Assembly: GCA_003223455.1 (NCBI GenBank)
Contig: QHVE01000014.1
Coordinates: 63,077 to 127,076, forward strand
DNA: 64,000 bases
Reading direction: 5' to 3'
From: Gemmatimonadota bacterium
Lineage (GTDB): Bacteria; Gemmatimonadota; Gemmatimonadetes; Gemmatimonadales; Gemmatimonadaceae
How positions within the stretch are numbered: position 1 is the stretch's first letter; the number at the start of each line of letters is the position of its first letter. Shown here piece by piece: positions 3,217-12,509 of the stretch. The position numbers and the translations under genes are program-made. The notes under the pieces are model-generated. The model was not told the DNA's origin and did not search any database. It worked only from the letters and a program-made list of their open reading frames with translations.

Positions 3217-4230
3217 GTGGACGCCAGACGGCACGCGATCGATGGACAGCCCGGCGCGACGGGGCCCAGCATCCGCGGGATCGCCTACGTGTATGCGTCG
3301 GCGTCGCGCACGGTGCGCGACCTGGCCGCGAGCGGCGCGCTCGAGAGCGACCCCGCCGTGCTGGAGGGGTTCGGGTTCGATCGCGTGCACGTGGCCGTCG
3401 AGGAGACTCCGTACGATCTCGCACTCACGGCCGCGGCCCGGCTGCTCGACGAGCAAGGAGTGGATCCGGCCAGCGTCGGTCTTCTCGTATACGCGGGCAC
3501 GCCCAGCGCCATGGCGTTCGCCGCCGCCTCGGATGCCGGCGCCGGCGCGGCGGCGCTCTGCACCGCCGACCGGTTTCGCTATCCGGTGACGCGGCTGCAG
3601 CACGAGCTCGGGCTCGAGCGCGCCGCCGTGCTCGCGCTCGATCAGCTGGCGTGCACCACACTCTTCGGAGCGATCCGCGTGGCGCGCGCGATGATGGCCG
3701 CCGAAGGAATCGATCGGGCGCTCTGCGTGGCGAGCGAGTTCTATCCGGCGCACGCCGGTCGCGAGGCCGTGTACAACTGCACCTCGGACGCGGCGTGCGC
3801 GCTCCTGCTCGACGCGACCGACGACGCAGACGCGCGCAACCGCATCGTCGGCGCCACTACCATATCGAAGGGCTACTACTGGGATCCGGAAGCGATGCGC
3901 GAGGAGGTAATCGCCTCGTACTTCCCCACCGCCGTGCACGCGATCGGTCGCGCGCTCTGCGATGCCGGCTGGCGCCCGGAGGACGTGGACTGGGTGATCC
4001 CGCACAACGTGAGCACGCGAAGCTGGGAGGTGCTGCTCCGCTTGATGCGGCTGCCCAACGCGAAGCTCTGGGCGCACAACATCCCCCGCCGCGGCCACAC
4101 GCTGTCCGGCGACAACTTCATCAACCTGCGCGACGCGATCGACGGCGGCGACGTGCGCCCCGGTCAGCGCGCACTCCTCTTCGCCTACGGTTACGGCGCA
4201 CACTGGACGGCGCTCGCCGTGGAGGCCTGA
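3217..4230 (+). CDS. 3-oxoacyl-ACP synthase III (FabH/KAS III)-like condensing enzyme or acyltransferase
   Basis: C-terminal ~337 codons of ORF 2950..4230. It has IRGIAYVYASASRTVRDL (a FabH-like N-terminus), the nucleophile Cys in DQLACTTLFGA and His in VIPHNVS. The position of the FabH GNT Asn reads GHT. The start is assigned to GTG 3217, preceded by GGAG 6 nt upstream. There is no in-frame ATG nearby, so the start is uncertain. Confidence 0.8.
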   Translation: MDARRHAIDGQPGATGPSIRGIAYVYASASRTVRDLAASGALESDPAVLEGFGFDRVHVAVEETPYDLALTAAARLLDEQGVDPASVGLLVYAGTPSAMAFAAASDAGAGAAALCTADRFRYPVTRLQHELGLERAAVLALDQLACTTLFGAIRVARAMMAAEGIDRALCVASEFYPAHAGREAVYNCTSDAACALLLDATDDADARNRIVGATTISKGYYWDPEAMREEVIASYFPTAVHAIGRALCDAGWRPEDVDWVIPHNVSTRSWEVLLRLMRLPNAKLWAHNIPRRGHTLSGDNFINLRDAIDGGDVRPGQRALLFAYGYGAHWTALAVEA

Positions 4231-4231
4231 C

Positions 4232-10143: not shown

Positions 10144-12509
10144 CCGCGCGCGCCGGCACGCTCTGGCACGACCGGCTCGCACGATTCGTCGTGCGGCGGC
10201 GGCGGTGGCTGTGGGGCGCATGGGCGATTGCCGTCGTGCTGCTGCTGCCGCACGCGCGCGAGGCGAAAGCGCGGCTGGAGGTCGCCGCACGCGTACGAGG
10301 GAGCGAGTCCGAGATGGTCGCGCAGCTCCTCGCCGACCGCTTCGACTCGCCGTTCGCGCGCTCGGCCGTCGTCGTCGTCACGGGTGTTCCGCGGCCGGAC
10401 AGGCCCGCCGGCCGTGCCGCGCTGCGTGGGCTCGTCACCGCCGCGGCTCGCGTCCCCGGCGTCACGCGCACGCTCTCCTATCTCGACGTCCCCGACAGCG
10501 CCTTTCTCGGCGCCGGCTCCGGCACGTTCATCGTCGTCGGGCTGGATGGCCGGCGCACCTCCGGCGATTCGCTCGTGGCGCGCCTGCGCGCCGGTACCGC
10601 CGCGGCCGCGATGACGATCCGGGTCACACATCCCACCGCCGAAGTGATGGTGACGGGAGAGGATGCCCTCAACCACGACCTTCGCGCCGCGAGCGCACAC
10701 GACGTCTCGGCGGCGGAGCGTCGCGCGCTTCCGCTCACGCTCGTGCTCCTCCTGCTCGCCTTCGGCGCGGTGGTGGCGGCGTTGATCCCGCTCGGTGTCG
10801 GAGGCCTGGCGATCGGGCTCGCGCTGGGCGCGGCCGCGCTCGTCGCCCGTGTGTGGCCGCTCTCCATCGCTCTTCAGAACGTCGTCTCGATGCTCGGCCT
10901 CGGGCTCGGCGTGGACTACACCCTGCTGCTCGTGAGCCGCTTCCGCGAAGCACGCGCCATCGGCGCCGACGCCGAGCATGCGGCGGTGGAGGCGGCGACG
11001 CACGCGGGGCACAGCGTGATCGTGTCCGCCGCGACGGTGGCGGTGGGCTTCGCCGCGCTGCTCGCCGTCCCACTCGCCGACCTCCGCTCCATCGCCGCCG
11101 GGGGACTGCTCGTCGTCGTGGTTTCCGCGCTGCTCGCCGTCACGCTCGTACCCGGACTGCTCGCCTCGCTCGGTGCGCGCATCGAGATCGGGCGCGTGCT
11201 GCCGCGTGCACGTGGCGCGGCCGCGTCGCGCTGGCGCGGCTGGGCCGCCCGCGTGGCGCGACATCCCCTGCGCACGCTGGTCGGTGCCGGACTACCGCTC
11301 GTGCTGCTCGCCGCGCAGGCGACACGCCTGAAGCCCCAGCTTCCGCGCGGCGACTGGCTGCCACGCTCGGCCGAGGCGGCACGTGGCGCGCGTGCGCTGC
11401 GCGCCATGGGCAGCGGGGGCGTGGTGCAGACGGTGCGAATCGTCGTCGCGCTGCCAGCAGGCGCTCGCGCGCTCGACGACCGCGGCTACGTCGCGACCGC
11501 ACGCCTCGCGGCCGCGCTCGTGCGCGATCCGCGCGTGCGGCGCGTGCGCTCGCTGCCCGGCGTCGCCAACGGCGTGATGCCCCGCTCGCCCTTCTTCGCG
11601 CTCGTGTCCGACGACGTGCTGCGCTCGTTCGTGAGCCGCGACCAGCGACTCGCGCTGCTCGAGGTGGTTCCATCCGATGGCGCCGACGGCGCGGCGCTTC
11701 CCGCGCTCGCGCGCGACCTCCGGGCCATCGACGCGGGAGCCGTGAGCGGCGTCGACGGCACGCGGCTGCTCGTCGGTGGCGTGCCGGCACTCAACGCCGA
11801 CTACGCCGACGCCATCGCACGCCGCACTCCGCTCGTGGTCCTGCTCGTCGTCGGCGGGACGCTGCTCGCCCTTGCCGTCGGGTTCGAATCGATTCTCGTA
11901 CCGGTCAAGGCGGTCGCACTCAATCTCCTCACCGTCGGATCGGCGCTCGGTGTCGTCGTGCTGGTGTTCCAGGACGGGCACGGCGCCCGGCTGGTCGGGC
12001 TCTCGGCACCGCTCGACGGCACCTTCGCCGCCGTGCCGCTGCTCGTGTTCTGCATCGTGTTCGGCTTGAGCATGGACTACGAGGTCTTTCTGCTCTCGCG
12101 CGTCGCGGAGGCGAGGCGGCGCGGCGCATCCGAGGGCGCCGCACTCGTCGCGGGCGTGGGACATTCGGGGCGCGTGATCACCAGCGCCGCATCGATCATG
12201 GTGGTGGTGTTCGGTGCGTTCGCGCTCGGGGACTTCGTCCTCGTGAAGATCCTCGGCGTGGCGCTCGCCACCGCCGTCGTGCTCGACGCCACCCTCGTGC
12301 GCCTCGCCGTGGGACCGGCGCTCCTCGCGCTCGCGGGCCGCTGGAACTGGTGGCCCGGCTCGATCGTGTCCCACCGCGTTCCAAATCCGAATTCCGTCGT
12401 TGAAGAGGAAATGGAAACGGCATTCGCTACGGCAGATACAGATCGGCGCGCGAGAGCGGCACGGACGCCGAGCCGTCGGGCATCGGCTTCGCGAGCAGCG
12501 TCTGAATGA
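10140..12509 (+). CDS. MMPL-family (RND superfamily) membrane transporter
   Basis: Starts MTARAGTLWHDRLARFVVRRRRWLWGAWAIAVVLLL. It has two 6-TM bundles, each preceded by a soluble loop, and the duplicated MMPL signature GLGVDYTLLLVSRFRE / FGLSMDYEVFLLSRVAE. The 3' tail overlaps the convergent cfa gene by 83 nt. Confidence 0.85.
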   Translation: MTARAGTLWHDRLARFVVRRRRWLWGAWAIAVVLLLPHAREAKARLEVAARVRGSESEMVAQLLADRFDSPFARSAVVVVTGVPRPDRPAGRAALRGLVTAAARVPGVTRTLSYLDVPDSAFLGAGSGTFIVVGLDGRRTSGDSLVARLRAGTAAAAMTIRVTHPTAEVMVTGEDALNHDLRAASAHDVSAAERRALPLTLVLLLLAFGAVVAALIPLGVGGLAIGLALGAAALVARVWPLSIALQNVVSMLGLGLGVDYTLLLVSRFREARAIGADAEHAAVEAATHAGHSVIVSAATVAVGFAALLAVPLADLRSIAAGGLLVVVVSALLAVTLVPGLLASLGARIEIGRVLPRARGAAASRWRGWAARVARHPLRTLVGAGLPLVLLAAQATRLKPQLPRGDWLPRSAEAARGARALRAMGSGGVVQTVRIVVALPAGARALDDRGYVATARLAAALVRDPRVRRVRSLPGVANGVMPRSPFFALVSDDVLRSFVSRDQRLALLEVVPSDGADGAALPALARDLRAIDAGAVSGVDGTRLLVGGVPALNADYADAIARRTPLVVLLVVGGTLLALAVGFESILVPVKAVALNLLTVGSALGVVVLVFQDGHGARLVGLSAPLDGTFAAVPLLVFCIVFGLSMDYEVFLLSRVAEARRRGASEGAALVAGVGHSGRVITSAASIMVVVFGAFALGDFVLVKILGVALATAVVLDATLVRLAVGPALLALAGRWNWWPGSIVSHRVPNPNSVVEEEMETAFATADTDRRARAARTPSRRASASRAASE
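12388..12426 (-). terminator. hairpin immediately downstream of the cfa stop (possible terminator in the convergent junction)
   Basis: CGAATTCCGT (12388-12397) and ACGGCATTCG (12417-12426) pair at 9 of 10 positions around a 19-nt loop. This is a locally AT-richer patch. There is no strong U-tract. Confidence 0.3.

Follow-up and report, generated by a model that had tools for sequence, protein, structure and literature searches.

Which pathway is served by a ligase that joins amino acids to carrier proteins (an aa:CP ligase) and is derived from an aminoacyl-tRNA synthetase (aaRS)? The question is raised by positions 3,217 to 12,509 of a 64,000-nucleotide stretch of DNA from a Gemmatimonadota bacterium of the Gemmatimonadaceae (assembly GCA_003223455.1, contig QHVE01000014.1, positions 63,077 to 127,076 of the forward strand; the whole stretch is hereafter the window), where the gene for such a ligase lies within a nine-gene operon. 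Since 2010, to our knowledge, no pathway has been assigned to the aa:CP ligases. A review from 2022 states their biological role to be unknown (PMC9437257), and, in keeping with a preliminary description of this DNA that called the product uncharacterized, no characterized pathway with this gene set was found in the literature searched, the coverage of which may leave out recent work in subscription journals. The operon is considered to encode a pathway for an amino-acid-derived lipid that is templated on its small carrier protein (g3 below); a probability of roughly 0.6 is attached to this reading, which is based on fold, motif, synteny, and selection. The genes are, in order:

g1, 3217-4230, + strand: ketoacyl-acyl-carrier-protein synthase III (KAS III)-like thiolase-fold enzyme, 337 aa
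g2, 4232-5386, + strand: stand-alone short-chain dehydrogenase/reductase (SDR) of the thioester-reductase/fatty-acyl-reductase type, 384 aa
g3, 5383-5664, + strand: carrier protein of the aminoacyl/peptidyl (peptidyl carrier protein, PCP) type, 93 aa
g4, 5651-6559, + strand: amino acid:carrier-protein ligase, a truncated homolog of the methanogen-type seryl-tRNA synthetase (SerRS), 302 aa
g5, 6556-7347, + strand: ferritin-like di-iron protein of the soluble acyl-ACP desaturase/R2lox class (ACP, acyl carrier protein), 263 aa
g6, 7368-7907, + strand: four-helix-bundle di-iron protein, COQ7/rubrerythrin/MiaE-like, 179 aa
g7, 7904-9016, + strand: DUF3419/BtaA-family protein, a putative 3-amino-3-carboxypropyl transferase dependent on S-adenosylmethionine (SAM), 370 aa
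g8, 9013-10143, + strand: double-GNAT acyltransferase with an N-myristoyltransferase (NMT)-like fold, 376 aa
g9, 10140-12509, + strand: MMPL-family RND transporter, 789 aa

The nine open reading frames at 3217-12509 are free of internal stops and have a GC content at third codon positions (GC3) of 0.84-0.92, in a region of 70-75% GC. ATGA overlaps join neighboring genes at 5383, 6556, 7904, 9013, and 10140; g3 and g4 overlap by 14 nt (5651-5664), a single nucleotide (4231) separates g1 from g2, and 20 nt (7348-7367) separate g5 from g6. Shine-Dalgarno motifs resembling GGAG or GGAGG precede eight of the nine starts. Inside the operon no terminator-like hairpin was found on the + strand, a promoter and terminator scan gave no signal above shuffled expectation, and a search for riboswitches and other RNA elements in 2500-13500 gave no Rfam match at E values up to 1. 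Public gene calls for three other contigs that carry an identical ligase give g1 to g8 as 337/384/93/302/263/179/370/376 aa; the layout, coordinates, and junctions are as the preliminary description had them, with the public gene callers agreeing on the boundaries. Its domain assignments are upheld for all nine products by profile-HMM searches, PDB matches, and structure models of g5 and g8. Annotation of the nine products with Pfam and NCBIfam also bears out the reported absence of adenylation (A) or condensation (C) domains of nonribosomal peptide synthetases (NRPS), of polyketide synthase (PKS) modules, and of enzymes dependent on pyridoxal phosphate (PLP).

The ligase g4 and a protein of a Gemmatimonadetes metagenome-assembled genome (MAG) share 100% identity, and g4 has 787 relatives, mostly from soil metagenomes. 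An actinomycete origin, at which the GC content of 72% might hint, is rejected on this identity and because the relatives are nearly all Gemmatimonadota; the host is an uncultured soil member of that phylum. When one genome from each GTDB species was scanned, 71 loci were obtained, about 60 of them from Gemmatimonadota MAGs; co-occurrence was counted in the 57 loci of Gemmatimonadota type at a ligase identity of 50% or more, using the evaluable loci as denominators. In these, g1, g2, g3, and g5 stand alongside g4 in 50/50 to 55/55 loci, followed by g6 (42/48), g7 (44/48), g8 (41/44), and g9 (35/40). The gene order is kept among Gemmatimonadota loci from more than 50 related species, and the arrangement is far beyond chance, the same order recurring in the 57 Gemmatimonadota-type loci; the synteny elsewhere that had been predicted for this gene set is very strong, and a rearranged core is present in other phyla. 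Flanking genes differ between loci, which marks the operon itself as the conserved unit. All nine genes have dN/dS ratios of 0.12-0.44 when compared with three relatives, indicating purifying selection. g1-g6 make up the conserved core, and a few relatives are without g7-g9, which together constitute an accessory module.

The product of g4 aligns with the ligase Bll0957 (PDB 3mey, E 4.7e-39) over 3mey residues 55-324 and with the type-2 SerRS 3w3s (E 2e-11) over C-terminal core residues 243-503; from these alignments it is a class-II aaRS catalytic core that does not contain the N-terminal tRNA-binding domain. The match to the NCBIfam model NF005479 ("amino acid--[acyl-carrier-protein] ligase") has an E value of 9.5e-50 and scores 169.3 bits, which does not reach the equivalog cut-off of 357; g4 is therefore placed in a divergent subfamily. 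The zinc ligands Cys120, Glu165, and Cys266 align with their Bll0957 counterparts, and this Cys/Glu/Cys triad is invariant in 63 homologs and in 20 ligases from all contexts; the motif residues are likewise invariant across all ligase contexts compared. The earlier assignment of the 5651-6559 product as an aaRS core related to Bll0957 and Atu2573 stands on the 3mey match and the zinc triad. The partner g3 matches the Pfam PP-binding family above the gathering score (E 1.9e-7), and in the PDB it is closest to CcbZ, PCPs, and DltC; the aminoacyl carrier protein of Agrobacterium (4h2w_C) is matched only weakly (E 0.47). Ser46, the phosphopantetheine-attachment residue (LLDS46L), is kept in at least 93% of 54 homologs, and genes for a phosphopantetheinyl transferase (PPTase) flank 15 related loci; together with the family match these observations confirm the 5383-5664 product as a carrier protein. 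A weak NCBIfam match of g3 brings up the OlsHI ornithine-lipid pathway, which is ruled out as it is based on a GH3 enzyme and is unrelated.

g1 belongs to the KAS III group, with Pfam matches to ACP_syn_III_C (E 1.4e-16) and to ACP_syn_III (E 9.5e-5, slightly under the gathering score). It has 33 PDB matches at E values up to 0.001, most of which are FabH and which also include CerJ (E 7.5e-8), PqsD, and DpsC; it falls under every NCBIfam cut-off (TIGR00747, 50.7 against 292 bits; PRK09352, 66.9 against 249 bits). Cys146, Asn264, His294, and Asp299 are invariant in 61 homologs. The catalytic set is permuted, with His294 at the position of the FabH asparagine and the position of the FabH histidine occupied by His in 53 homologs and Gln in eight, with the invariant Asn264 after it; the Cys is kept, but the canonical Cys-His-Asn triad positions of FabH are not matched. 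g1 is not a canonical FabH. The reductase g2 matches Pfam NAD_binding_4 over profile positions 1-258 of 258 (E 1.1e-42, 146.5 against a cut-off of 20.1 bits) and the thioester-reductase domain model TIGR01746 with an E value of 1e-31 (110.6 bits; the cut-off of 213.35 is not reached). Its Rossmann motif (TGxxGxxG) and catalytic YxxxK motif are kept in 63 homologs.

The two di-iron proteins differ in how widely they are shared. The family profile of g5 matches DesA2 of M. tuberculosis (E 2.4e-8), and weak FA_desaturase_2 matches are seen in 31/31 family members. Its AlphaFold2 model (pLDDT 85.5) is all-helical, and the best structural matches of the model are stearoyl-ACP desaturases, R2lox, ADO-like proteins, and VlmB, all of them weak (E 5e-3 to 0.1, TM ~0.5); the conserved residues are E100/E103..H107, E156-H157, and D185-E186-x-R-H189. 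The possibility that g5 is the ortholog of the AurF-like proteins encoded in related clusters of other phyla (described below) is rejected, with an hhalign probability of 0.2% and AurF Pfam matches in 0/31 members. In g6 the residues E18, E48-x2-H51, and E129-x2-H132 are invariant and E98 is kept in at least 90%, which gives the E/ExxH/E/ExxH pattern of a four-helix di-iron protein. Pfam matches of the g6 family are to COQ7 in 30/33 members (best 1.4e-8), Rubrerythrin in 27/33, and ferritin, with weak matches to AurF in 11/33 and, also weakly, to DUF455; PDB proteins matched by the profile are symerythrin, a Dps-like protein, bacterioferritin, and MiaE. The di-metal sites of g5 and g6 are both intact. 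g6 is the only di-iron gene common to the operon and the clusters of other phyla.

The accessory module consists of two candidate decorating enzymes and a transporter. g7 matches the Pfam family DUF3419 near full length, over residues 13-358 (E 2.8e-63, 214.8 against a cut-off of 28.2 bits), and rhizobial DUF3419 genes are ~29-32% identical to it over ~94% of its length; an SGGC motif resembling a nucleotide-binding motif is conserved, and a single-protein PDB sequence search found no solved structure that matches it. g8 matches Pfam Acetyltransf_9 in its N-terminal half only (E 2.5e-6). Its AlphaFold2 model (pLDDT 90.3, pTM 0.88) matches human NMT1/2 and other NMTs over its whole length (~385-410 columns, Foldseek E 1e-14, TM 0.60-0.64), and the double-GNAT call is therefore confirmed. 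Identity to the structurally matched NMTs is 11-15%; Pfam gives no NMT match, a single-protein PDB search gives none at all, and the family profile gives marginal GNAT/NMT matches (E 0.03 and weaker). By its model, the nearest structural analog of g8 is NMT, which transfers a fatty acyl group onto a primary α-amine. g9 matches Pfam MMPL (PF03176, E 3.7e-61) in two stretches, and among NCBIfam models it most resembles that of the MmpL3 domain (275 bits; the cut-off of 1400 is not reached) and those of HpnN-type transporters.

The accessory module varies between loci. In three loci (L015, L057, and L049) g7-g9 are replaced by a PEMT/ICMT-like methyltransferase and a PAP2 phosphatase; in L015 (12124-13592) the PEMT/ICMT-like membrane methyltransferase and PAP2 lipid phosphatase follow g6, and family members occur in ~2-3 further loci. 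This pair may be an alternative head-group module. In L001, a 416-kb contig with a ligase 77% identical to g4, the DUF3419, GNAT, and MMPL genes look fragmented (12363-16861), either by decay of the accessory module or by indel errors of the assembly.

Beyond the Gemmatimonadota the core is found in a rearranged form in the genomes of three cultured Krasilnikovia strains and in MAGs of Frankiaceae, Acidimicrobiales, and other Actinomycetota, as well as in a Thermoanaerobaculia MAG (Acidobacteriota) and an alphaproteobacterial MAG. In Krasilnikovia sp. MM14-A1004 it occupies 3426239-3447042 of NZ_AP038773.1. These cousin clusters comprise genes for an AurF-family di-iron oxygenase, a CP, a ligase, a thioester reductase, a PPTase, a g6-like di-iron protein, a second ACP, and a g1-like KAS III. 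The AurF-family (PF11583) gene is present in cousin loci L063-L070, L073, and L074; no member of this family is encoded in the window or in any Gemmatimonadota locus. The second ACP adjoins the KAS III gene, and an AMP-binding gene resembling those for fatty acyl-AMP ligases (FAAL-like) is added in L063 and L065; since both adjoin KAS III, a preformed fatty acyl chain is taken to be one substrate of the KAS III-like enzyme. In the Frankiaceae MAG the cluster further includes genes for DUF3419 and GNAT proteins; MMPL-like matches are found in L063, L067, L069, L070, and L073, and MFS transporters are annotated in L063 and L070.

Other ligase contexts extend the comparison. The classical type, as in Azospirillum, combines an ACP, an acyl-CoA dehydrogenase (DH), the ligase, and DUF1839. 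A plasmid of Streptomyces sp. NBC_00984 (L079, 6362-11231) carries a 3-hydroxyacyl-CoA DH, a CP, an acyl-CoA DH, a ligase, and an acyltransferase within a PKS/NRPS cluster, the ligase paralog being annotated as "hypothetical"; this cassette we take to be a ZmaG/H/I aminomalonyl-ACP cassette of the zwittermicin type in which an aaRS-like ligase replaces the adenylation domain. In Streptomyces sp. NPDC127117 (L074, 9046-11895) and on plasmid pTM2 of Tistrella mobilis (L083, 7727-11012), genes for an AurF-like protein, a CP, and a ligase are joined by one for a nitronate monooxygenase, which suggests that a tethered amino acid is converted to a nitro compound with subsequent release of nitrite; this recurrent four-gene cassette could supply nitrite, made on a carrier protein, to N-N bond chemistry. 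Another Streptomyces plasmid has an AurF-like gene, an ACP, a ligase, and a PPTase inside a ketosynthase/chain-length factor cluster. On a Bdellovibrionota MAG chromosome (L026, 7722-10885) a 48%-identical ligase stands with a JmjC-like oxygenase and a fusion of a hexapeptide-repeat acyltransferase to a CP; the other operon genes are absent from this locus. On plasmid pl395 of Bacillus mycoides (L082, 1006-13217) the neighbors of a ligase and ACP are three KAS III-like genes and the genes for an acyl-CoA dehydrogenase and a BtrH-domain protein; these KAS III-like genes have the Cys / PxN / GH..D signature of g1. The g1-like subfamily lies beside aa:CP ligases in three phyla, and the shared signature suggests a KAS III subfamily that may be dedicated to aminoacyl carrier proteins. 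A neighbor-joining tree places the Gemmatimonadota ligases in one clade, whose sisters are the clades linked to AurF, with the classical and aminomalonyl-like ligases more distant. The common theme of these contexts is a small amino acid that is tethered to a CP, oxidized while tethered, and in many cases subsequently coupled to a fatty or polyketide chain; the ligases emerge as modular loaders with at least five kinds of oxidizing partner (AurF-like enzymes, nitronate monooxygenase, acyl-CoA-DH pairs, JmjC-like oxygenase, and desaturase-like di-iron proteins).

In the mechanism proposed for the operon, the zinc-dependent g4 would adenylate one of the small amino acids Gly, Ala, and Ser and load it onto the phosphopantetheine arm of g3. 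Cys146 of g1 would take a fatty acyl group from acyl-ACP or acyl-CoA, a group that in the cousin clusters is likely supplied by a dedicated FAAL-like enzyme and the second ACP; a Claisen-type condensation by g1 at the α-carbon of the g3-bound unit would then give a 2-amino-3-oxoacyl-S-CP. The COQ7-like g6 perhaps first oxidizes the tethered amino acid to provide a nucleophilic α-carbon, and the acyl-ACP-desaturase-like g5 may alter the carrier-bound chain. Reductive release of the thioester by g2, as aldehyde or alcohol, would yield a long-chain vicinal amino-alcohol that is sphingoid-like and made without a PLP enzyme. Within the accessory module, the NMT-like g8 is predicted to N-acylate the free amine with a second fatty acid to form a ceramide-like molecule, the BtaA-like g7 to move the aminocarboxypropyl group of SAM onto the primary alcohol, and g9 to export the lipid to the envelope. 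The lipid character is supported by the NMT-like model of g8, by the likeness of g5 to acyl-ACP desaturases, and by the MMPL transporter; further support comes from the cousins that have a FAAL-like gene and second ACP and from the variants with the PEMT/ICMT-like and PAP2 pair.

Genes beside the operon in the window, and additions to it in related loci outside the window, are as follows:

1608-2981, − strand: GDSL lipase, divergent, upstream of the operon
12427-13320, − strand: methyltransferase of the cyclopropane/mycolic-acid synthase family (CMAS-type), convergent, overlapping the 3' end of g9 by 83 nt
13815-16859, − strand: large ATP-binding LuxR-family (LAL) regulator, 1014 aa, with AAA_16, TPR, and GerE domains
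L010 7152-7721 and 14 other loci, not in the window: PPTase gene directly upstream of g1
L011 8674-9663 and 13 other Gemmatimonadota loci, not in the window: radical-SAM/SPASM gene between g8 and g9

A homolog of the LAL protein lies directly downstream and convergent in L001, L002, L005, L055, L046, L049, and L066 and is absent beside most other loci; the protein is probably the cluster regulator, an association that is tentative. The GDSL lipase is conserved in just the 4-5 closest loci and the CMAS-type methyltransferase in one other locus (L008) only; both are lipid-related but are rejected as cluster members and taken as neighbors because their conservation is limited to these few closest loci. 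Elsewhere in the window, a 712-aa open reading frame with high GC3 and no Pfam match (19466-21604, + strand) is ATGA-coupled at 21601 to the gene for an HD_5 protein. A large α-glucan metabolism cluster at 25110-40034 (+ strand), unrelated to the operon, encodes several α-amylase-family enzymes, a GlgB-like branching enzyme, a 4-α-glucanotransferase, and a phosphorylase; beyond it lies the gene for a protein with a lysyl-phosphatidylglycerol-synthase transmembrane domain (40155-41168, − strand).

How the acyl chain and the amino acid are joined is the point on which the possible chemistries diverge. The preliminary description had read the operon as an amino-lipid pathway; the domains, synteny, and lipid character of that reading stand, but the conserved core is limited to g1-g6 and an N-oxygenated rival had been overlooked. 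A carbon-carbon (Claisen-type) route to a long-chain amino-alcohol lipid is slightly preferred here, as a tentative choice. It is preferred because g1 keeps an invariant His and Asn in addition to Cys, as condensing enzymes do; because in a sister ligase context (L079) an amino acid is turned, while tethered, into an extender unit for a ketosynthase; and because the product would offer a free amine to the NMT-like g8 and a primary alcohol, like that of ceramide or diacylglycerol, to the BtaA-like g7. The zwittermicin ZmaG/H/I/J cassette makes aminomalonyl-ACP, which is a carbon nucleophile for ketosynthases. The occurrence of the g1-like KAS III subfamily beside aa:CP ligases in three phyla also speaks for this coupling. 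The full extension of this route, a PLP-independent path from Gly or Ser to a ceramide-homoserine-type, phosphorus-free envelope lipid exported by MMPL proteins in Gemmatimonadota and some Actinomycetota, is rather doubtful. Several points count against the carbon-carbon route and against an envelope lipid as its end. No ZmaG/ZmaI-type dehydrogenase or AurF-family enzyme that could activate the α-carbon is encoded in the window; its activation by g6 is speculation, and g6 is missing in 6/48 loci. The fold matches of g5 are weak (see above), the function of DUF3419 proteins is, as far as we know, established for diacylglycerol acceptors only, and a LAL regulator with a patchy cross-phylum distribution is more typical of specialized metabolites than of bulk membrane lipids. 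N-acylation, moreover, is chemically easier, the free α-amine being a better nucleophile than the α-carbon, and KAS III-like acyltransferases are known, with CerJ among the PDB matches of g1 (E 7.5e-8). These last two points lead to a route that is possible but less than probable, in which g1 is an N-acyltransferase acting on the amine of aminoacyl-S-g3; g5 and g6 would desaturate or hydroxylate the chain, g2 would release an N-acyl amino aldehyde or alcohol (e.g. N-acylethanolamine if glycine is loaded), g7 would add a homoserine-type group, and g8 would acylate the new α-amine to give a two-chain, phosphorus-free lipid exported by g9. The gene evidence for this is the same as for the carbon-carbon route; g7 and g8 travel as a module, fitting a dependence of g8 on the g7 product, and the model of g8 matches the fold of NMT, which acylates the α-amine of glycine. 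It is opposed by the invariant Cys/His/Asn of g1, which is as in condensing enzymes and differs from the Cys/Ser-His-Asp set of CerJ and DpsC; it also reduces the near-universal di-iron genes to chain tailoring. The cousin AurF-family gene adjoins CP and ligase even where fatty-acid genes are absent, which implies that the amino acid itself is oxidized before coupling.

Oxidation of the tethered amino acid could take another direction, and an N-oxygenated product is a serious rival because the closest ligase relatives adjoin AurF-type N-oxygenases: the ligase clades nearest to the Gemmatimonadota clade in the neighbor-joining tree are all AurF-linked. Here the logic of the pvf/ham clusters would be carried out by stand-alone parts, with a di-iron enzyme forming a hydroxylamine, nitroso, or nitro group on the carrier-bound amino acid before acyl coupling, reductive release, and further processing; the result would be a nitro-, hydroxamate-, azoxy-, or diazeniumdiolate-type lipid or diffusible signal (fragin/valdiazen-like) and no membrane lipid. 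In pvf/ham an AurF-like enzyme oxidizes carrier-bound valine on an NRPS with a reductase domain (PMC11659414), and the Streptomyces/Tistrella cassette with nitronate monooxygenase points to amine-to-nitro chemistry. The weak AurF profile matches within the g6 family and the azoxy synthase VlmB among the g5 fold matches lean the same way, and the LAL regulator and patchy distribution fit a specialized metabolite. However, the window has no AurF-family member and g5, unlike the AurF-like proteins of the cousins, has a family that matches acyl-ACP desaturase instead; the aminotransferase and cupin found in the ham cluster are missing, and the MMPL, NMT-like, and BtaA-like proteins point to a bulky lipid. 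This outcome is regarded as unlikely. It is more improbable still that g1 is primed with the aminoacyl group from g3 for decarboxylative condensation with malonyl-ACP, giving a γ-amino-β-ketoacyl chain that is elongated by the fatty-acid synthase to an ω-amino lipid or released by g2 and cyclized to a pyrroline/pyrrole-type molecule. Starter selection is the canonical role of KAS III enzymes, FabH proteins are the best family matches of g1, and the second ACP beside the cousin KAS III could carry malonyl; against this, g1 lies under all FabH cut-offs with its triad permuted, the FAAL-like gene in L063 and L065 suggests a preformed fatty acid on the second ACP, and no elongating ketosynthase, ketoreductase, dehydratase, enoylreductase, or malonyl transferase is encoded in the Gemmatimonadota operon. 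The genes might, finally, form no single pathway or act outside lipid and natural-product synthesis, for example in aminoacyl transfer from g3 to an envelope lipid or protein, as double-GNAT folds also occur in the aminoacyl-transferases FemX and MprF and some loci do not have g6 or g7-g9. The model of g8 matches NMT, not Fem or MprF, and start/stop overlaps, 100% co-occurrence of g1-g5, an order kept in more than 50 species, and a core re-assorted in other phyla all speak for one pathway; there is little chance that this last explanation is correct.

The operon provides the first clear pathway context for the orphan aa:CP ligases, as the gene set covers loading, coupling, oxidation, reduction, decoration, and export. 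It is considered to be of high interest because a 15-year-old open question becomes experimentally tractable; nine defined genes and cultured Krasilnikovia strains that carry a cousin cluster make the role of the ligase directly testable. An envelope lipid as the product would constitute a new class of lipids and might serve as a biomarker for the soil-abundant, poorly cultured Gemmatimonadota. If coupling is by carbon-carbon bond formation, the operon would provide a PLP-free way to sphingoid-type bases and thereby a second, convergent origin for them; the sphingoid-like route, if true, would also be the first physiological function for aa:CP ligases. If N-oxygenation is instead the correct route, fragin/valdiazen-type chemistry would be extended past NRPS systems.

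Among known systems, the closest to the loading pair are the ligases Bll0957 and Bll6282 from Bradyrhizobium and Atu2573 from Agrobacterium, reportedly described with their cognate carrier proteins by Mocibob et al. in 2010 and 2013 (PDB 3mey, 4h2s-4h2y). Like g4, Bll0957 and Atu2573 are truncated methanogen-type SerRS cores with a Cys/Glu/Cys zinc site and no tRNA-binding domain, and a dedicated small carrier-protein gene lies directly upstream of the ligase gene and overlaps it; however, identity to g4 is just ~30-35% and g4 is under the NCBIfam equivalog cut-off. g3 is nearer to the PCP and DltC types than to Atu2571, the Agrobacterium carrier protein. The classical proteobacterial context has no genes for KAS III, reductase, di-iron, DUF3419, GNAT, or MMPL proteins, whereas the operon has all of these. 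Zwittermicin A biosynthesis by ZmaG/H/I/J is similar in principle, as serine is placed on a free-standing CP and oxidized while tethered before a ketosynthase forms a carbon-carbon bond at the α-carbon. It differs in that the window has no homologs of the 3-hydroxyacyl-CoA-DH or acyl-CoA-DH, so that the di-iron proteins would have to carry out the oxidation; furthermore, the condensing enzyme of the operon is KAS III-like rather than a modular PKS, and release is reductive.

In the pvf, ham, and mgo systems PvfB/HamC is an AurF-like N-oxygenase acting on NRPS-tethered valine, and the products are valdiazen, fragin, and pyrazine N-oxides (PMC11659414). Like the operon, these systems combine an amino acid held on a carrier with a di-iron oxygenase and with reduction of the thioester, fragin is also lipidated, and the cousin clusters carry an AurF-family gene beside CP and ligase. 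The operon, in contrast, loads by an aaRS-like ligase and a free CP rather than an NRPS, has no aminotransferase or C-domain, and adds a KAS III-like enzyme, DUF3419, an NMT-like GNAT, and an MMPL protein; it is not a pvf/ham cluster because no AurF-family gene or NRPS is present. Pfam finds no AMP-binding or condensation domain in the operon products, and by analogy an NRPS protein of the adenylation-thiolation-reductase type would be functionally replaced by g4, g3, and g2.

Bacterial sphingolipid synthesis, reportedly set out by Stankeviciute et al. in 2022, employs Spt, an ACP, the GNAT-type ceramide synthase bCerS, and the reductase CerR. The proposed product of the operon resembles this pathway in its long-chain 2-amino-3-oxo/hydroxy base and in N-acylation by a member of the GNAT superfamily, and both use carrier proteins and an SDR; in the operon, however, it would be the amino acid that is tethered and not the acyl chain, and C1 would come from thioester reduction and not from the CH2OH of serine. 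No aminotransferase-fold domain, as expected for a PLP-dependent serine palmitoyltransferase, occurs in g1-g9 or the immediate flanks, and since no Spt is present the operon is not a canonical sphingolipid pathway. BtaA and BtaB make the betaine lipid diacylglyceryltrimethylhomoserine (DGTS) in Rhodobacter and Sinorhizobium. g7 is a full-length DUF3419 protein with ~30% identity to rhizobial DUF3419 genes; it differs in being paired with an NMT-like acyltransferase, and its acceptor is probably not diacylglycerol. No methyltransferase domain is found in g1-g9 that could act as a BtaB-type N-methyltransferase, the only one nearby being the CMAS-type enzyme on the opposite strand, and because no BtaB is present the operon is not one for DGTS synthesis. 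Set beside these systems, the operon would be a form of carrier-protein-templated biosynthesis that combines an aaRS-derived loader with a dedicated KAS III subfamily.

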